Program-made: the position numbers and the translations under genes
Notes under the pieces: generated by a model
What the model saw: the letters and a program-made list of their open reading frames with translations, nothing else
Database searches by the model: none
Told to the model about the DNA's origin: nothing
IMG/VR virus record: IMGVR_UViG_3300045988_156524
DNA from: a virus
Lineage: Duplodnaviria > Heunggongvirae > Uroviricota > Caudoviricetes
Length of the DNA: 64,000 bases
Strand: one strand, 5' to 3'
Part shown: piece after piece, positions 1-26,206 of the stretch
Layout: each line of letters opens with the position of its first letter
How positions within the stretch are numbered: the stretch's first letter is position 1

Positions 1-119
1 CTTTTCAGAAGAAAATGCTGCACCATTGCATTTCAGCCACCCCGTTGGCGGTGTGGCTGAGGGCCATGGAATAGGTACACCAACGGGCAGCGCCGAGCCT
101 TCCCCTAAACCAACGTTTT
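1..119. repeat. Direct repeat copy 1 (about 118 bp, 6 mismatches versus 440-558); carries the 5' end of a minus-strand tail-fibre cassette and ends in a cix-like site
   Basis: Read directly: 1-119 aligns base-for-base with 440-558 in the same orientation. Confidence 0.85.
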
Positions 120-129: not shown

Positions 130-556
130 TTACGATGTAATTAAATGCGATATTTCGCGGCCTGACAGCAACAAAATTTATACCATCACCTACAGAGTTA
201 CTGGTGAAATTAAATCGTGAAAATCCTGGCTGATTTCCGACGATGCCATCATGAAAATTAATTGCGTGCCCTGCACCATCGCCTATATTTCCGGCACGAT
301 GAGAAAAGTTTGTAGCCTCTTGGCTGCTTAATAATGCTCGCCGATTGTCCACACCTCGTCCATCATCCCAACCTCGAATAAATTCGCCCCGTAGATCCGG
401 CAATTTATTAGTGGGGTAAACCTTTGCCAGATTTGGGTACTTTTCAGAAGAAAATGCTGCTCCGTTACATTTCAGCCACCCCGTTGGTGGTGTGGCGGAG
501 GGCCATGGAACAGGTACACCAACGGGCAGCGCCGAGCCTTCCCCTAAACCAACGTT
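119..556 (-). CDS. Promoterless tail-fibre C-terminal variable cassette (Sv-like, 145 codons) with tail-collar motif LPDLRGEFIRGWDDGRGVD
   Basis: Minus-strand frame open 556 to 122, stop 119-121; PWPSATPPTGW and LPDLRGEF motifs; no ATG at the 5' end (track ORF 119-403 starts on TTG). Confidence 0.6.
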   Translation of the reverse strand, partial: NVGLGEGSALPVGVPVPWPSATPPTGWLKCNGAAFSSEKYPNLAKVYPTNKLPDLRGEFIRGWDDGRGVDNRRALLSSQEATNFSHRAGNIGDGAGHAINFHDGIVGNQPGFSRFNFTSNSVGDGINFVAVRPRNIAFNYIVRAA

Positions 557-618: not shown

Positions 619-1191
619 ATGCAAATTGGCTACATTCGTGTGTCAACAAATGACCAAAACACAGATTTACAAAGAAATGCACTGAACTGCGCAGGATGTG
701 AACTGATTTTTGAAGATAAAATAAGCGGAACAAAGTCAGCCAGACCAGGCTTGAAAAAGCTGCTCAGAACGTTATCAGAAGGAGATACGCTGGTTGTCTG
801 GAAGCTGGATAGGCTTGGCAGAAGTATGAAACACCTTATCACGCTTATAGAGGAGTTGCGGGAAAAAGGTGTTAATTTCCGTAGTCTGACAGACAGTATT
901 GACACATCAACACCCATGGGGCGTTTCTTTTTTCATGTCATGGGTGCTTTAGCAGAAATGGAACGTGAATTAATTGTTGAGAGAACACTGGCCGGACTGG
1001 CAGCTGCACGCGAACAGGGACGCATTGGCGGACGTCGCCCGAAGTTGACAAAAGAACAACATGAGCAAATAGCGAGGTTGATCGAAAATGGCTACAGCAG
1101 GAAACAGTTGGCAATTATTTACGATATCGGTGTATCGACGATTTATCGTTATCATCCTGTAGAGAAGCGCCAAACTCAATCTGAGCTGTAA
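619..1191 (+). CDS. cin: Serine recombinase, DNA invertase of the Hin/Gin/Cin family (190 aa)
   Basis: MQIGYIRVSTNDQNTDLQ...VVWKLDRLGRS resolvase/invertase signature with catalytic Ser; ATG 619 preceded by AGAGG; next to tail-fibre cassettes. Confidence 0.9.
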   Translation: MQIGYIRVSTNDQNTDLQRNALNCAGCELIFEDKISGTKSARPGLKKLLRTLSEGDTLVVWKLDRLGRSMKHLITLIEELREKGVNFRSLTDSIDTSTPMGRFFFHVMGALAEMERELIVERTLAGLAAAREQGRIGGRRPKLTKEQHEQIARLIENGYSRKQLAIIYDIGVSTIYRYHPVEKRQTQSEL

Positions 1192-22121: not shown

Positions 22122-22562
22122 ATGGCCACACTATCTGATACAATAAAACCGAATAAAACATATCTTGAGGCGGTACTCCGTACAGCGTTGTTAGGAAAGA
22201 CAGAAGACGAATACGTTGATTTCTTCCTGTCAGGGCTACGCGGGCGATTACTGAAAAATCCCCGCCTGTACCGCAGCTATGGTCCATACTGGCCGGAAAT
22301 TAAAAAATTATTACTGGAGCGCGGTTATGGTAATTTCGGTCGTCTCGTTGACCGTGACGTTCGCAAAATTTACCGTTATGACCGCCCGGCGCTAACACTC
22401 ATAGCCGCGACGCTCTACAGCCAGGAGCGTTTTGATAATGGTCAGATATACTCAGCCTGGCATTTACTGCCAGTGCCTGAAGAAGTTGACGACCAGGACT
22501 ATGAGTTTGAGTCTTACGATTTGGAAGTTGAAGCCTTGGCACAGGCTGGAGAGAAAACTTGA
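22122..22562 (+). CDS. ulx: Hypothetical protein upstream of lxc (146 aa)
   Basis: ATG ORF immediately after darB; synteny (from memory). Confidence 0.45.
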   Translation: MATLSDTIKPNKTYLEAVLRTALLGKTEDEYVDFFLSGLRGRLLKNPRLYRSYGPYWPEIKKLLLERGYGNFGRLVDRDVRKIYRYDRPALTLIAATLYSQERFDNGQIYSAWHLLPVPEEVDDQDYEFESYDLEVEALAQAGEKT

Positions 22563-22807
22563 AAAAGCGATACTACACAGTAAAGCATGGGACGCTACGA
22601 GCATTACAAGAGTTTGCTGATAAGCATAACGTTGAGGTGCGCAGGGAAGGGGGAAGTAAAGCTCTGCGCATGTACCGCCCGGACGGGAAATGGCGGACGG
22701 TGGTCGATTTCAAAACTAACAGTGTTCCCCAGGGCGTCCGCGATCGGGCATTCGAAGAATGGGAGCAGATCATCATAGATAACGCATTGCTCCTGAATGC
22801 AGATTGA
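22559..22807 (+). CDS. lxc: Small basic protein, putative C1 co-repressor Lxc/Bof-like (82 aa)
   Basis: TTG start overlaps ulx stop; size and position match P1 lxc as I recall. Confidence 0.45.
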   Translation: MKKRYYTVKHGTLRALQEFADKHNVEVRREGGSKALRMYRPDGKWRTVVDFKTNSVPQGVRDRAFEEWEQIIIDNALLLNAD

Positions 22808-22808
22808 C

Positions 22809-22837
22809 AATTTTGCCCGGAATTACCGGGCAAAATT
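22809..22837. terminator. Bidirectional terminator between lxc and the convergent toxSAS gene
   Basis: AATTTTGCCCGG-aatta-CCGGGCAAAATT hairpin. Confidence 0.65.
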
Positions 22838-23184
22838 AAGCAACTATCCTTCGTTACGAAGATGCTTATCTAAGAATTTTGTAAACTGGTTTGTTGAGCC
22901 AAAATAGTTGGGGTAGGCTTTTTTTAGTGACTTAATGTTATCTGTAGCAACGAGAACAGATATCAATACATTAGGATTAGAATCGTCTTTATTTAAGGCC
23001 TCAAGGGCTTCATCTGCTTCTTTTGTTTTAAATGCGCGAACAGACACTAGGAACATTTTTTTGTTTTTTGTATTGGGCTTGTTTTCTGCATTTCTCATTG
23101 TTACTAAGTAATGCCCCTTATGATTTTTTGGCAACTTCTTAATCAAATTCGCGTCAGAAGTTAAATTTAAGGCGATGGTGTATG

Positions 23185-23193
23185 TGCTTAGTT
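23185..23193. repeat. IS10 target-site duplication, left copy TGCTTAGTT
   Basis: Identical 9-mer at 24523-24531 flanking the IS. Confidence 0.9.
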
Positions 23194-24522
23194 CTGATGA
23201 ATCCCCTAATGATTTTTATCAAAATCATTAAGTTAAGGTGGATACACATCTTGTCATATGATCAAATGGTTTCGCCAAAAATCAATAATCAGACAACAAA
23301 ATGTGCGAACTCGATATTTTACACGACTCTCTTTACCAATTCTGCCCCGAATTACACTTAAAACGACTCAACAGCTTAACGTTGGCTTGCCACGCCTTAC
23401 TTGACTGTAAAACTCTCACTCTTACCGAACTTGGCCGTAACCTGCCAACCAAAGCGAGAACAAAACATAACATCAAACGAATCGACCGATTGTTAGGTAA
23501 TCGTCACCTCCACAAAGAGCGACTCGCTGTATACCGTTGGCATGCTAGCTTTATCTGTTCGGGCAATACGATGCCCATTGTACTTGTTGACTGGTCTGAT
23601 ATCCGTGAGCAAAAACGGCTTATGGTATTGCGAGCTTCAGTCGCACTACACGGTCGTTCTGTTACTCTTTATGAGAAAGCGTTCCCGCTTTCAGAGCAAT
23701 GTTCAAAGAAAGCTCATGACCAATTTCTAGCCGACCTTGCGAGCATTCTACCGAGTAACACCACACCGCTCATTGTCAGTGATGCTGGCTTTAAAGTGCC
23801 ATGGTATAAATCCGTTGAGAAGCTGGGTTGGTACTGGTTAAGTCGAGTAAGAGGAAAAGTACAATATGCAGACCTAGGAGCGGAAAACTGGAAACCTATC
23901 AGCAACTTACATGATATGTCATCTAGTCACTCAAAGACTTTAGGCTATAAGAGGCTGACTAAAAGCAATCCAATCTCATGCCAAATTCTATTGTATAAAT
24001 CTCGCTCTAAAGGCCGAAAAAATCAGCGCTCGACACGGACTCATTGTCACCACCCGTCACCTAAAATCTACTCAGCGTCGGCAAAGGAGCCATGGATTCT
24101 AGCAACTAACTTACCTGTTGAAATTCGAACACCCAAACAACTTGTTAATATCTATTCGAAGCGAATGCAGATTGAAGAAACCTTCCGAGACTTGAAAAGT
24201 CCTGCCTACGGACTAGGCCTACGCCATAGCCGAACGAGCAGCTCAGAGCGTTTTGATATCATGCTGCTAATCGCCCTGATGCTTCAACTAACATGTTGGC
24301 TTGCGGGCGTTCATGCTCAGAAACAAGGTTGGGACAAGCACTTCCAGGCTAACACAGTCAGAAATCGAAACGTACTCTCAACAGTTCGCTTAGGCATGGA
24401 AGTTTTGCGGCATTCTGGCTACACAATAACAAGGGAAGACTCACTCGTGGCTGCAACCCTGCTTACTCAAAATCTATTCACACATGGTTACGTTTTGGGG
24501 AAATTATGAGGGGATCTCTCAG
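23194..24522 (+). mobile_element. IS10 (IS4 family), complete, 1329 bp
   Basis: Ends CTGATGAATCCCCTAATGATTTT ... GGGGATCTCTCAG; 402-aa transposase; perfect 9-bp TSD. Confidence 0.95.
23301..24509 (+). CDS. IS10 transposase (402 aa)
   Basis: MCELDILHDSLYQFCPELHLKRLNSL... recognised as the IS10/Tn10 transposase. Confidence 0.95.
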   Translation: MCELDILHDSLYQFCPELHLKRLNSLTLACHALLDCKTLTLTELGRNLPTKARTKHNIKRIDRLLGNRHLHKERLAVYRWHASFICSGNTMPIVLVDWSDIREQKRLMVLRASVALHGRSVTLYEKAFPLSEQCSKKAHDQFLADLASILPSNTTPLIVSDAGFKVPWYKSVEKLGWYWLSRVRGKVQYADLGAENWKPISNLHDMSSSHSKTLGYKRLTKSNPISCQILLYKSRSKGRKNQRSTRTHCHHPSPKIYSASAKEPWILATNLPVEIRTPKQLVNIYSKRMQIEETFRDLKSPAYGLGLRHSRTSSSERFDIMLLIALMLQLTCWLAGVHAQKQGWDKHFQANTVRNRNVLSTVRLGMEVLRHSGYTITREDSLVAATLLTQNLFTHGYVLGKL

Positions 24523-24531
24523 TGCTTAGTT
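24523..24531. repeat. IS10 target-site duplication, right copy TGCTTAGTT
   Basis: Read directly. Confidence 0.9.
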
Positions 24532-25411
24532 TCCTCCGTACAGATAAAGTCCGTTCCAGCTCTTTAAGCTCGCCTTCATACTGAGATACAACTAGCTCAT
24601 CAAGAGTGCAGGCTTTTTCGTCGTGCGCTACAAGACATCCGGCTAGATAGAAAAATCGTCTCCATTCTGGATGCCCTTCACTTGAAGTTTTCAGCTTGAT
24701 ACCTTCAAGGGTATCAATTATTTCAAGGCTAGTAGCCCAAGCATGCTGCAATTGAGTTCTTAACTGTATCTCAATCTTTGTTTTTCGCCACGGATATTGA
24801 TCCTCTTTCTGATCGAAGCAACTGTATGCAAGGTGGATTCCACTATAGCCGCTGTCTTTGGGAGTAAGATAATCATACTCTTTAACAATCCTATGAACAG
24901 ATTTGCTTTTTAAAAGACGTTCCTTTAGCTGTATCAACTGGTCTAAGTTTCTGACAATGGCCCTACATCCGCCAACGTCCTGCATCCGTGTTAATTTAAT
25001 TGCATTGCTAGTTCTGCCTCCATCAAGACTAGGACGCTCTAGTTTATCTATTATGGTAGAAAGTCGCTTAAGTCTTCTTGCAACGAGAATCTTTTTGTCC
25101 TTGTCAACCTTAGCAGCTGCTCTTGCTAAATGATTTTTCATGAGCATTAATGGATAAAGATGCAGCTCACGGAAATTTTGTATCATTTCAATAGATTGCT
25201 GCCTTTCTTCGTCACTACACCCGTGCCTTATCAATTGAGCAGCCCTATCAATTTGAGATTTTGAATATTTCAACTTGCATTTTTGACTTTGATAAACTTC
25301 ATTCCCCATTGCTTTCATCCATTTTAAATGATTTACATGCTGTTACATCTAATGATAAAGCGGTTAGAAAATCAATGGAGAATGTAACCACAAAATTACT
25401 GTATGTAATTG

Positions 25412-26053
25412 TTAAAAATAATTATGCTTGCCTGTTAATACCCCTTTCGGCACTTTTTTTTGTTCCAGTATCTGGGTGCCCAGAATTATGTTAATCAGTG
25501 GACTTAGTAACGATGGTTCTTGGCGGGCCTCAACTTCTCCAGCCATTGCCCTGATGTAGTCGGCGCTGGCAACGTTGTTGTATTCCGTCGCAAAGCAACA
25601 TAGTAACGTCAGAACATGCTCTGTCGTTATTTCGCTCCAGTTGATGTTGAAAAATTCATCGCCTTTTTTATCGTGTTCGGAATCGAAGATGCTTTGGTGG
25701 AGAATGTATTTGCCGGATTCCTTGCGCGGTAACTTGATTGCTTTCTGGCGTTCCAGCTCCTTATAAATCTGCATTGCCTCAATTAGTACCGGCCTGCCGT
25801 TCATGAAGGGATCGCGCAACCTTACACGCTGGCCAACTCGACCAGTAATAAAGCTGTTTTCCTCTTCCACCAGCACGATAAAACCCTTTTCCTCTTTTTC
25901 TCGCAATTCGCGCAGCAGCTGGAGTTCCATATCGCGGCGGCGTTCAGGGTAGCTGGTCCGCTCAGCCATTATCAGCTCGTTATTGATCCATGCAGCAGTC
26001 ATTGACGCCGGTTTGCCGACGCTCATCGAAACAACGCATATTTTCTTATCCAT
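25412..26053 (-). CDS. mat: Hypothetical protein at the P1 mat position (213 aa)
   Basis: ATG 26053 with AGGGGG RBS; synteny between ref and the res-mod slot. Confidence 0.4.
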   Translation of the reverse strand: MDKKICVVSMSVGKPASMTAAWINNELIMAERTSYPERRRDMELQLLRELREKEEKGFIVLVEEENSFITGRVGQRVRLRDPFMNGRPVLIEAMQIYKELERQKAIKLPRKESGKYILHQSIFDSEHDKKGDEFFNINWSEITTEHVLTLLCCFATEYNNVASADYIRAMAGEVEARQEPSLLSPLINIILGTQILEQKKVPKGVLTGKHNYF

Positions 26054-26183
26054 AGCGCCCCCTACAAAAAAGAAAAGCCACCAGCGGCGGCTTAGCAATA
26101 CAACTGAAGGTAGCGCCCGGTACTCAGACTGTGCCGTCCATGGAATATTTGAAAAGGGATCCATCCGTACCGGGCATGTGATG

Positions 26184-26206
26184 ATTCTGACTGAAGTCAC
26201 TTGTCA
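26184..26206 (-). promoter_or_regulatory. Candidate late promoter for mat (TGACAAGTGACT, 5 nt, CAGAAT on minus strand)
   Basis: Motif family member. Confidence 0.35.

Follow-up and report, generated by a model that had tools for sequence, protein, structure and literature searches.

A CapRel-type fused toxin-antitoxin gene interrupted by IS10 in the mat-lxc slot of a P1-like element

In the 64,000-nucleotide stretch of viral DNA analysed here (IMG/VR record IMGVR_UViG_3300045988_156524, Caudoviricetes; the whole stretch is called the window below), the minus-strand gene between mat and lxc is split by a complete copy of IS10. Probably this gene is an orthologue of CapRel(SJ46), the founding fused toxSAS from Salmonella phage SJ46 (PDB 7ZTB, 9ERV; Zhang et al. 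2022, PMC9712102, and 2024, PMC11578894), and was recently inactivated by the insertion, with loss of the triggered defence and tolerance of the remaining toxin fragment. IS10 lies between codons 263 and 264; thus the locus is a disrupted CapRel member (pseudogene), and a single uninterrupted ORF is obtained only after excision of the element. The insertion breaks the last linker helix, which leaves the intact toxin domain on one side and the sensor/antitoxin domain on the other. In contrast to the fused CapRel(SJ46), no functional fused protein can be made from the gene as it stands. Both the family and the location are already known and in this respect the case is largely an ordinary one. 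The identification itself is of small value: CapRel is well characterised, its type member comes from the same slot and the intact allele is common in E. coli.

The interrupted gene was reconstructed by removing positions 23194-24531 (1338 bp, i. e. IS10 plus one copy of the target-site duplication) in silico. This gave an open ORF of 378 codons ending at 22844, as the preliminary description had proposed from its own translation of the junction. In relatives, the annotated start is the second ATG (25309), which gives 375 aa and places the break after residue 263; the 378 codons result from the alternative ATG at 25318. Counted from this upstream ATG, the present-day ORF (25318 to 24488) has 276 aa, 266 of them native and 10 encoded by IS10. 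It contains the motifs GYSGIHLAY and EIQLRTQLQHAWAT and then reads into IS10 and stops, again as described before. The 5' part of the gene together with the duplication at 24523-24531 encodes native residues 1-263. These comprise the whole toxSYNTH domain (RelA/SpoT nucleotidyltransferase), two linker helices (214-230, 238-255) and half of the last one (257-271). The 3' part holds what remains of this last helix, then the pseudo-ZFD (three strands, 286-294, 307-315 and 335-342, and a helix, 316-330, all according to the model), the YxxY motif formed by Y353 and Y356, and a helix at the C-terminus (361-371). All features of the locus, together with lesions of the same allele found elsewhere, are listed in Table 1.

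Table 1. Features of the interrupted CapRel-type locus (positions in the window) and lesions of the same allele in other sequences (positions in the allele)
Feature	Position	Strand	Basis or remark
lxc (modulator of C1), left border of the variable slot	22559..22807	+	ORF list and gene-order comparison
G+C-rich hairpin TTTTGCCCGG-TAATT-CCGGGCAAAA, T and A runs on either side	22811..22835	.	read from sequence
CapRel-type gene, 3' part, codons 264-375 and stop	22844..23193	-	sequence; identity; model; first bases include the duplication 23185-23193
Target-site duplication, left copy, TGCTTAGTT	23185..23193	.	sequence
IS10, complete, 1329 bp	23194..24522	+	outside end 23194, inside end 24522; ends and identity to known copies
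RNA-OUT, IS10 antisense RNA from pOUT	23239..23308	-	Rfam RF00240, full model 1-70
IS10 transposase gene, intact, 402 aa, DDE	23301..24509	+	ORF list; Pfam DDE_Tnp_1 on identical locus L007
Present-day ORF, 273 aa: 263 native and 10 IS10-encoded residues (ERSPHNFPKT, from the inside end)	24488..25309	-	ORF list
Target-site duplication, right copy, TGCTTAGTT	24523..24531	.	sequence
CapRel-type gene, 5' part, codons 1 to ~259	24532..25309	-	sequence; identity to WP_000526244.1; Pfam; model
mat (maturation control), right border of the variable slot	25412..26053	-	ORF list and gene-order comparison
Loss of the allele start	allele nt 1-100		
ISKpn26 insertion	allele nt 268		
Nonsense mutations	W191*, Q188*		
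rve-type IS	allele nt 588		
IS5-type junction	about allele nt 711		
IS1 insertion	allele nt 736-744 (codon 248)		
Second IS1 junction	about allele nt 791 (about codon 264)		short contig
IS3 insertion	allele nt 961 (codon 320)		55-residue remnant left
1-bp deletion	allele nt 1047		within an A7 run

The assignment to the CapRel family, for which the preliminary description had relied on RelA/SpoT-like motifs, was borne out by sequence and structure searches. With phmmer, the restored protein matched the CapRel(SJ46) structures 7ZTB and 9ERV over residues 4-374 (E 5e-185), and it is 73% identical to CapRel(SJ46) from end to end. It was also recognised by Pfam RelA_SpoT (PF04607; E 3e-12, residues 82-196, above the gathering score) and as PADLOC PDC-S33 (E 7e-86). 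A confident AlphaFold model of the restored protein (pLDDT 84) gave 9erv_A and 7ztb as the top Foldseek matches, with E values of ~1e-38 and 361-362 aligned columns. The small alarmone synthetases RelP and RelQ matched the N-terminal domain only, with 20-24% identity over the core fold. The N-terminal nucleotidyltransferase domain (toxSYNTH) is thus recognised both by Pfam PF04607 and by Foldseek matches to RelP, RelQ and CapRel. The ATP-coordinating residues R79 and R116 and Y155 of the G-loop are present, and their columns are invariant in an alignment of 46 sequences.

Over its last ~110 residues the protein aligns to the pseudo-ZFD antitoxin/sensor domain of CapRel, and this part is modelled as a three-stranded sheet and a helix (286-342). 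The YxxY motif and, at the interface, the residues A77, V339, L340, A342 and A352 (A77, V338, L339, A341 and A351 in SJ46 numbering) are present as well and conserved across homologues. Because of this alignment and the YxxY motif the C-terminal part is not an unrelated gene; the earlier view of the extension as a fused antitoxin or phage-sensing domain agrees with this, and neither of the two outcomes that had been named as speaking against the proposal (lack of a nucleotidyltransferase fold, or a C-terminal segment without homology to toxSAS domains) was encountered. A housekeeping small alarmone synthetase (RelQ/RelP/YjbM) was considered and rejected: NCBIfam GTPPhKinYjbM scored 35.5 bits, far below its cut-off of 320, and the CapRel-specific C-terminal domain is present. 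A closed, autoinhibited state of the model is only suggested, from its rmsd of ~10 Å to the open crystal forms.

Thus the gene shares with CapRel(SJ46) the architecture, the catalytic and interface residues, the predicted fold and the mat-lxc slot. The two differ most in the pseudo-ZFD, where identity is 61% compared to 79% in toxSYNTH; in CapRel(SJ46), the pseudo-ZFD sets phage specificity. By homology, the intact allele would be expected to pyrophosphorylate the 3'-CCA end of tRNAs, to be activated by a phage protein and to act by abortive infection. In the sources cited here, these activities are described only for CapRel(SJ46) and CapRel(Ebc) (PMC9712102, PMC11578894, PMC13423816).

The position of the gene corresponds to the res-mod position of P1, as had been noted before. 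The gene order is mat-[gene::IS10]-lxc-ulx-darB here and mat-res-mod-lxc-ulx-darB in P1. CapRel(SJ46), first described from a P1-like phage (PMC9712102), occupies the same mat-lxc slot, and CapRel has been reported to be frequent as a defence among P1-like phage-plasmids of E. coli (bioRxiv 10.1101/2025.09.12.675607). The EcoP1I type III restriction-modification system of P1 and CapRel are both defence cargo of P1-like elements in this slot, but their proteins and mechanism are unrelated. The CapRel gene and lxc are convergent, and the hairpin between their stop codons went unreported in a simple terminator scan; judging from its sequence, it probably acts as a bidirectional terminator.

The inserted element corresponds in all points to IS10/IS10R of Tn10, a member of the IS4 family (labelled 'ISVsa5 family' by NCBI). 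It has the same length of 1329 bp, the same ends (CTGATGAATCCCC... and ...GGGGATCTCTCAG, forming imperfect terminal inverted repeats), the same 402-aa DDE transposase and RNA-OUT (Rfam RF00240; E 3e-20, 97.3 bits with the gathering score at 41), and it is 99.9-100% identical to circulating copies from R100 and many other plasmids. Nothing notable differs, except that the copy is solitary: it is the only IS10 within the 64-kb window, and no composite Tn10 is present. The ends, the coordinates and the perfect 9-bp duplication TGCTTAGTT at both flanks were all reproduced as first described. The duplicated target matches the IS10 hot-spot consensus NGCTNAGCN at five of the six specified positions and also fits the relaxed form NPuCNNNGPyN (both PMC4574204). 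Target preference was considered as the cause of the location and is not compelling. Since 14 perfect GCTNAGC sites elsewhere in the window were left unused and a five-of-six site was used instead, the location is poorly explained in this way.

The uninterrupted allele, for which a screen of relatives had been suggested, is well represented. The restored protein is identical at 375 of 375 positions to WP_000526244.1, annotated as 'RelA/SpoT domain-containing protein' in P1-like plasmids of E. coli, which was found in 83 of 5,426 complete E. coli genomes. These copies have the same neighbours as the gene studied here but are uninterrupted. At the nucleotide level, the restored ORF matches the copy of pSA186_4 (NZ_CP022733.1) at 1127 of 1128 positions, and eight intact E. 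coli records show 100% identity to both gene halves and to the adjoining sequence, 132 bp on the upstream and 144 bp on the downstream side. The identity of the flanks and of the promoter region to intact alleles indicates that the insertion is young. Hence silencing by IS10 and a recent event in this lineage, which had been offered as alternatives, hold together. A literature search found no paper naming WP_000526244.1; thus this allele seems to be uncharacterised by experiment.

The course of events that we consider most probable is as follows. By analogy to CapRel(SJ46), the N-terminal toxSYNTH domain of the intact form would be a tRNA pyrophosphokinase, which the pseudo-ZFD and the YxxY motif would hold off by folding back over the ATP site. 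Binding of a phage protein to the pseudo-ZFD would release this inhibition, whereupon translation would halt and infection abort. IS10 entered the near-consensus target after codon 263, within the last linker helix. The catalytic domain would now be made without its sensor and inhibitor, as 263 native and 10 IS-encoded residues, and the sensor domain would remain as a promoterless 3' fragment. With the toxin domain parted from a promoterless sensor, phage-triggered defence would be lost in this lineage. Most likely, the N-terminal remnant is not an active toxin and is tolerated for want of activity, stability or sufficient expression. Yet the 1-263 fragment retains every catalytic element and the unchanged promoter region, and for this reason an inert fragment is an assumption. 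A second-site mutation that could explain the tolerance was not visible in the gene or in the 132 bp upstream.

The same allele has been damaged repeatedly. At least 11 independent lesions were found elsewhere, caused by other IS elements and nonsense mutations among others (Table 1), and roughly one in eight carriers among the complete genomes is affected. Some of these lesions could be sequencing errors, as the 1-bp deletion falls in an A7 run and one locus (L010) comes from an error-rich assembly. The repeated natural inactivation suggests that loss of the allele is cheap or even favoured; it constitutes a natural record of the cost or dispensability of an abortive-infection toxin on a phage-plasmid. 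In three well-defined IS insertions from sequenced isolates (IS1 at codon 248, IS10 at codon 263 and IS3 at codon 320) the whole toxSYNTH domain is kept. Hence a toxin domain without its inhibitor exists in several natural lesions, whereas laboratory work on CapRel(SJ46) predicts toxicity. There, fragment 1-272 was toxic when overexpressed and 273-373 rescued in trans; mutants of YxxY or of the interface were toxic as well, disruption of the interface giving constitutive toxicity (PMC9712102). According to the same source, single-copy CapRel(SJ46) driven by its own promoter was assayed with the trigger Gp57, and we take this native level as enough to halt growth once the protein is activated. 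Whether the tolerance is due to an unstable fragment, to its dose or to rescue in trans (in the present case perhaps via pOUT) therefore bears on the autoinhibition model at native expression. There is a small chance that the recurring toxin-only truncations are not plain nulls, and that the IS10 allele is a pOUT-driven split pair or the free toxin is harmless at native dose. If true, a harmless free CapRel toxin domain would revise the simple picture of autoinhibition.

A split pair would mean that the N-terminal toxin is made from the native promoter and that the C-terminal part, transcribed by read-through from pOUT/OUTIIp and translated from an internal start, neutralises it in trans. Such a pair may still respond to phage triggers and would be a natural case in which an IS has turned a fused immune sensor into a bicistronic module. 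RNA-OUT and pOUT are directed outwards, straight into the 3' fragment and in its sense direction. Only 45 nt separate the 3' end of RNA-OUT from the end of the IS, and the fragment starts 46 nt past RNA-OUT. Activation of neighbouring genes by the outward-facing promoters of IS10 is known (PMC4574204). The ORF beginning with TTG 23146 covers residues 276-375, which is nearly the fragment that rescues in CapRel(SJ46), and the toxin half carries no inactivating change. Furthermore, each half of fused CapRel has its homologue in the toxin or the antitoxin of bicistronic toxSAS, and unfused CapRel/ATcapRel pairs occur naturally in Actinobacteria (PMC9712102).

The IS10 split resembles the two-ORF layout of such systems (PhRel/ATphRel of mycobacteriophage Phrann, CapRel/ATcapRel) only superficially, however. 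In bicistronic toxSAS, the two genes share a transcript and each is equipped with its own signals for translation, whereas here the halves are 1.3 kb apart and no ribosome-binding site is evident for the 3' half. None of the candidate in-frame starts in the 3' part (TTG 23146, 100 aa; ATG 23098, 84 aa; ATG 23056, 70 aa) is preceded by a convincing Shine-Dalgarno sequence, the anti-SD duplex energies ranging from +2.2 to -2.1 kcal/mol. A sigma-70 scan of positions 22700-25500 returned a single weak match inside mat and no useful match for the CapRel promoter or pOUT. In addition, the insertions of IS1 and of IS3, two elements not known to carry a strong outward promoter comparable to that of IS10, are tolerated too, the latter with the 55-residue remnant. 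Thus rescue specific to pOUT is not needed for survival. A split toxin and antitoxin driven by pOUT is conceivable but finds no support as far as translation is concerned, and for lack of a convincing ribosome-binding site we rank it as an unlikely rival and not as the main explanation.

Still less probable is a truncated toxin that is partly active and not neutralised, imposing a lasting burden on growth or a slow-down of translation akin to persistence, which the host lineage would tolerate or have suppressed at another place in its genome. The catalytic domain and the promoter are intact and the autoinhibitory YxxY motif and interface are gone, a situation reminiscent of the constitutively toxic interface mutants of CapRel(SJ46). 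P1-type plasmids carry the phd-doc addiction system, which hinders simple plasmid loss. On the other hand, the allele is unchanged across several assemblies, and several independent truncations that preserve the toxin domain are hard to square with meaningful toxicity. The fragment has also lost half of the linker helix and gained 10 foreign residues, which may destabilise it. Simple loss of the defence, with the fragments tolerated, is the most likely interpretation.

That the insertion is a laboratory or assembly artefact, i. e. a hop of IS10 in a Tn10-derived host or a mis-join, is hardly credible: IS10 often inserts as a contaminant in laboratory hosts (PMC4574204), and the insertion was absent from INPHARED phages, PLSDB plasmids and the 5,426 complete E. 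coli genomes and its junction from IMG/VR contigs (0 matches in a junction-sequence scan), but at the near-consensus target the 9 bp are duplicated perfectly, which is the signature of genuine transposition, and the allele recurs in other assemblies. The exact 273-aa truncated product is found on 5 Logan contigs and in ENA by exact-protein look-up. The 276-aa version lies on 2 JGI/IMG contigs as a member of a JGI cluster, although the contig index gave no record for it. Over 12.8 kb, locus L007 shows no difference from the window (100% identity), and the independent assembly SRR8090505 shows 100% identity across both IS10 junctions. The insertion thus persists in several public assemblies.

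The 84-aa ORF beginning with ATG 23098 is called by gene callers in several genomes. A chromosomal variant of this ORF (P0136) was also seen, the context of which was obtained by BLAST.

In the preliminary description, a minus-strand ORF with RelA/SpoT-like motifs was said to run into a complete IS10 flanked by a perfect 9-bp duplication, and all of these elements were recovered (see table). The native part of the ORF comprises the first 266 residues and contains GYSGIHLAY and EIQLRTQLQHAWAT, and the final ten residues (ERSPHNFPKT) are translated from the inside end of IS10. The element is complete as judged by its ends, an intact transposase of 402 aa on the plus strand, a full-length match to RNA-OUT (Rfam RF00240, 97 bits) and 99.9-100% identity to IS10 copies carried by R100 and by hundreds of further plasmids. 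The duplicated target agrees with the IS10 hot-spot consensus NGCTNAGCN (PMC4574204) at five of the six specified positions. In silico excision of 23194-24531 (1338 bp) gave an in-frame junction and, as predicted, one 378-codon ORF ending at 22844. In relatives the second ATG (25309) is the annotated start, giving 375 residues; with this numbering IS10 falls after residue 263.

Features of the interrupted CapRel gene and lesions in the same allele. The first three rows give window positions, the remaining rows positions in the allele (window 22844-25309, minus strand).
Feature	Position	Details	Found in
Interrupted ORF	25318 -> 24488 (minus)	276 codons, start 25318	window
IS10	23194-24522	1329 bp; start CTGATGAATCCCCTAATG; end reverse complement of CTGAGAGATCCCCTCAT	window
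Target duplication TGCTTAGTT	23185-23193 and 24523-24531	perfect 9-bp direct repeat	window
Loss beside IS26	nt 1-100	codons 1-34	p20170902CC-2
ISKpn26 (IS5 family)	nt 268-271		pE148-2 and two other plasmids
Foreign N-terminus	joined at residue 102		P0125
Nonsense Q188*	codon 188		two ENA metagenome contigs
Nonsense W191*	codon 191		SRR7865866
rve-type IS junction	nt 588		SRR23081500
IS5-type junction	about nt 711-715	3' part alone left; chromosomal remnants included	ERZ28647404, NZ_CP138419.1
IS1	nt 736-744		GCA_054664255.1
IS10	nt 779-787		window
Second IS1	about nt 791		SRR31599426
IS3	nt 959-961		p65COLEC-2
1-bp deletion in A7 run	nt 1047	may be sequencing error	p10044802_3

The restored protein proved to be a CapRel-type fused toxin-antitoxin, as had been suspected. 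It matches PDB 7ZTB ('Salmonella tRNA pyrophosphokinase CapRel') and 9ERV ('Salmonella CapRel bound to Bas11 Gp54') over its whole length (E about 1e-185), is 73% identical to CapRel of Salmonella phage SJ46, contains a RelA_SpoT domain (Pfam) and is spanned by the PADLOC model PDC-S33 at residues 14-374 (E 7e-86). A housekeeping alarmone synthetase was rejected, the NCBIfam model being missed by a wide margin. An AlphaFold model built with 46 homologues was confident (pLDDT 84, pTM 0.84), and its closest structural matches were the CapRel structures. These align over 361-362 columns, whereas small alarmone synthetases align to the N-terminal ~195 residues only. The C-terminal extension is thus an antitoxin/sensor domain, as had been proposed: the autoinhibitory YxxY motif (Y353, Y356) and the interface residues A77, V338, L339, A341 and A351 (SJ46 numbering) are all present, as are the ATP-coordinating R79 and R116 and the G-loop Y155. 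All are conserved across the CapRel family, and experiments on CapRel(SJ46) have established their importance (PMC9712102). Compared with CapRel(SJ46), the pseudo-ZFD is the most divergent part (61% identity, versus 79% in the toxin domain); in SJ46 it determines phage specificity (PMC9712102). The locus is therefore a disrupted member of a family already characterised in structure and mechanism.

The assignment to the res-mod slot of P1 was correct. To its left the window gene has darB, ulx and lxc, and to its right mat, ref, c8 and cre; P1 carries res and mod, and SJ46 carries CapRel, between mat and lxc. The slot is already known for this family, which was first found there: CapRel(SJ46) was picked from exactly such an element (PMC9712102). 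According to a 2025 survey, CapRel is among the commonest defences of E.coli P1-like phage-plasmids, and type III RM is commoner in Salmonella (bioRxiv 10.1101/2025.09.12.675607).

Uninterrupted copies exist. WP_000526244.1 has the same sequence as the restored protein, and the allele occurs at >=99% identity in 83 of 5,426 complete E.coli genomes, almost always plasmid-borne. Both gene halves together with 132 bp upstream and 144 bp downstream are 100% identical to eight E.coli records. Since neither decay after the insertion nor any visible change in the promoter region is found, the insertion is, judged from sequence, recent, one of the two possibilities raised before. The same insertion was absent from the phage, plasmid and complete-genome collections searched; yet five Logan contigs encode precisely the 273-aa truncated product, and one of them (SRR8090505) agrees with the window at 100% identity across 12.8 kb. 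A 276-aa version occurs in JGI/IMG. This indicates a real allele of sequenced isolates and rules out an assembly accident.

In the AlphaFold model the toxSYNTH core ends at helix 186-202 and is followed by three linker helices (214-230, 238-255, 257-271), the pseudo-ZFD (strands 286-294, 307-315 and 335-342, helix 316-330), the YxxY segment and a last helix (361-371). The IS10 break falls about halfway along helix 257-271. Zhang et al. divided CapRel(SJ46) nine residues further downstream; their fragment 1-272 was toxic and was rescued in trans by 273-373 (PMC9712102). The IS10 lineage hence encodes the full catalytic domain without its inhibitor, with the upstream region unchanged, and the sensor/inhibitor is left as a detached fragment. 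As phage-triggered activation needs a sensor coupled to the toxin, the defence function should, by analogy with SJ46, have been lost.

Many independent lesions came to light when the 84-aa C-terminal ORF and the allele were looked up in other genomes (see table). The IS1 calls make use of what we take to be the IS1 terminal sequence, beside InsA/InsB Pfam matches on locus L011. Well-supported insertions that keep the whole toxin domain and lose the inhibitory elements number three (IS1 at codon 248, IS10 at 263, IS3 at 320), too few, given strong IS target preferences, for a formal test. Neither IS1 nor IS3 is known to supply a promoter on a par with pOUT of IS10. The simplest common explanation is thus that toxin-only fragments are tolerated at native dose, and plain loss of function is ranked first.

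Second comes a split toxin-antitoxin, in which a free C-terminal fragment driven by pOUT rescues the toxin in trans. pOUT and RNA-OUT (23308->23239, minus) do point out of IS10 straight into the 3' fragment in sense direction, there is precedent for outward IS10 promoters switching on adjacent genes (PMC4574204), and initiation at TTG 23146, the first start in frame, would yield residues 276-375, nearly the published rescuing fragment. However, a credible Shine-Dalgarno sequence is absent at all candidate starts, and the IS1 and IS3 fragments occur without such a promoter, which makes this reading unlikely. The remaining interest lies in the repeated natural inactivation of the allele and in the fact that truncations leaving only the toxin domain are tolerated without an evident reason.

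Among the relatives of window 22844-25309 (loci L011, L017, L019, L004, L012 and L013), several independent IS insertions lie in the linker at codons 238-264 of this one allele (IS5-type ~238, IS1 246-248, IS10 260-263, IS1 ~264). Target DNA that is AT-rich or bent may account for this, as may selection. Remnants of the slot were also seen on the chromosome, in NZ_CP138419.1 (1052411-1060824; L018) and two or three other E.coli chromosomes. They hold the 3' 414 nt of the allele, lxc and ulx, enclosed by ISKpn26, IS26 and IS3; the CapRel part, a 142-aa hypothetical protein in the annotation, is in effect an orphan 'antitoxin/sensor' piece that lacks the toxin domain. In GCA_900449445.1 (UGCW01000001.1; L010) almost all genes near the slot are fragmented and the CapRel gene shows five gap openings. 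Assembly errors seem a likelier source than genuine decay, and this locus should be left out of the tally of independent lesions.

Between the convergent CapRel and lxc stop codons, a 10-bp G+C-rich stem with T4/A4 flanks (22811-22835) looks like a candidate bidirectional terminator, outside the rule of the terminator scan. The longest mat ORF (25412-26200) has a GTG start and 262 aa, versus 213 aa (642 bp, end 26053) in the annotation of relatives, a start-codon ambiguity only. An extra DUF4145-domain gene lies between mat and ref in NZ_CP102949.1 (L005) and p65COLEC-2 (L019) and is lacking in the window; this interval is a second small variable slot adjoining the defence slot. Finally, ARAGORN found four minus-strand tRNA genes at 60233-62359: Met-type (CAT anticodon), Thr, Tyr and Asn. 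Since three are described for P1 (Asn, Thr and Ile, the latter read as CAT), the 87-nt tRNA-Tyr (62193-62279) may be extra cargo of this lineage.
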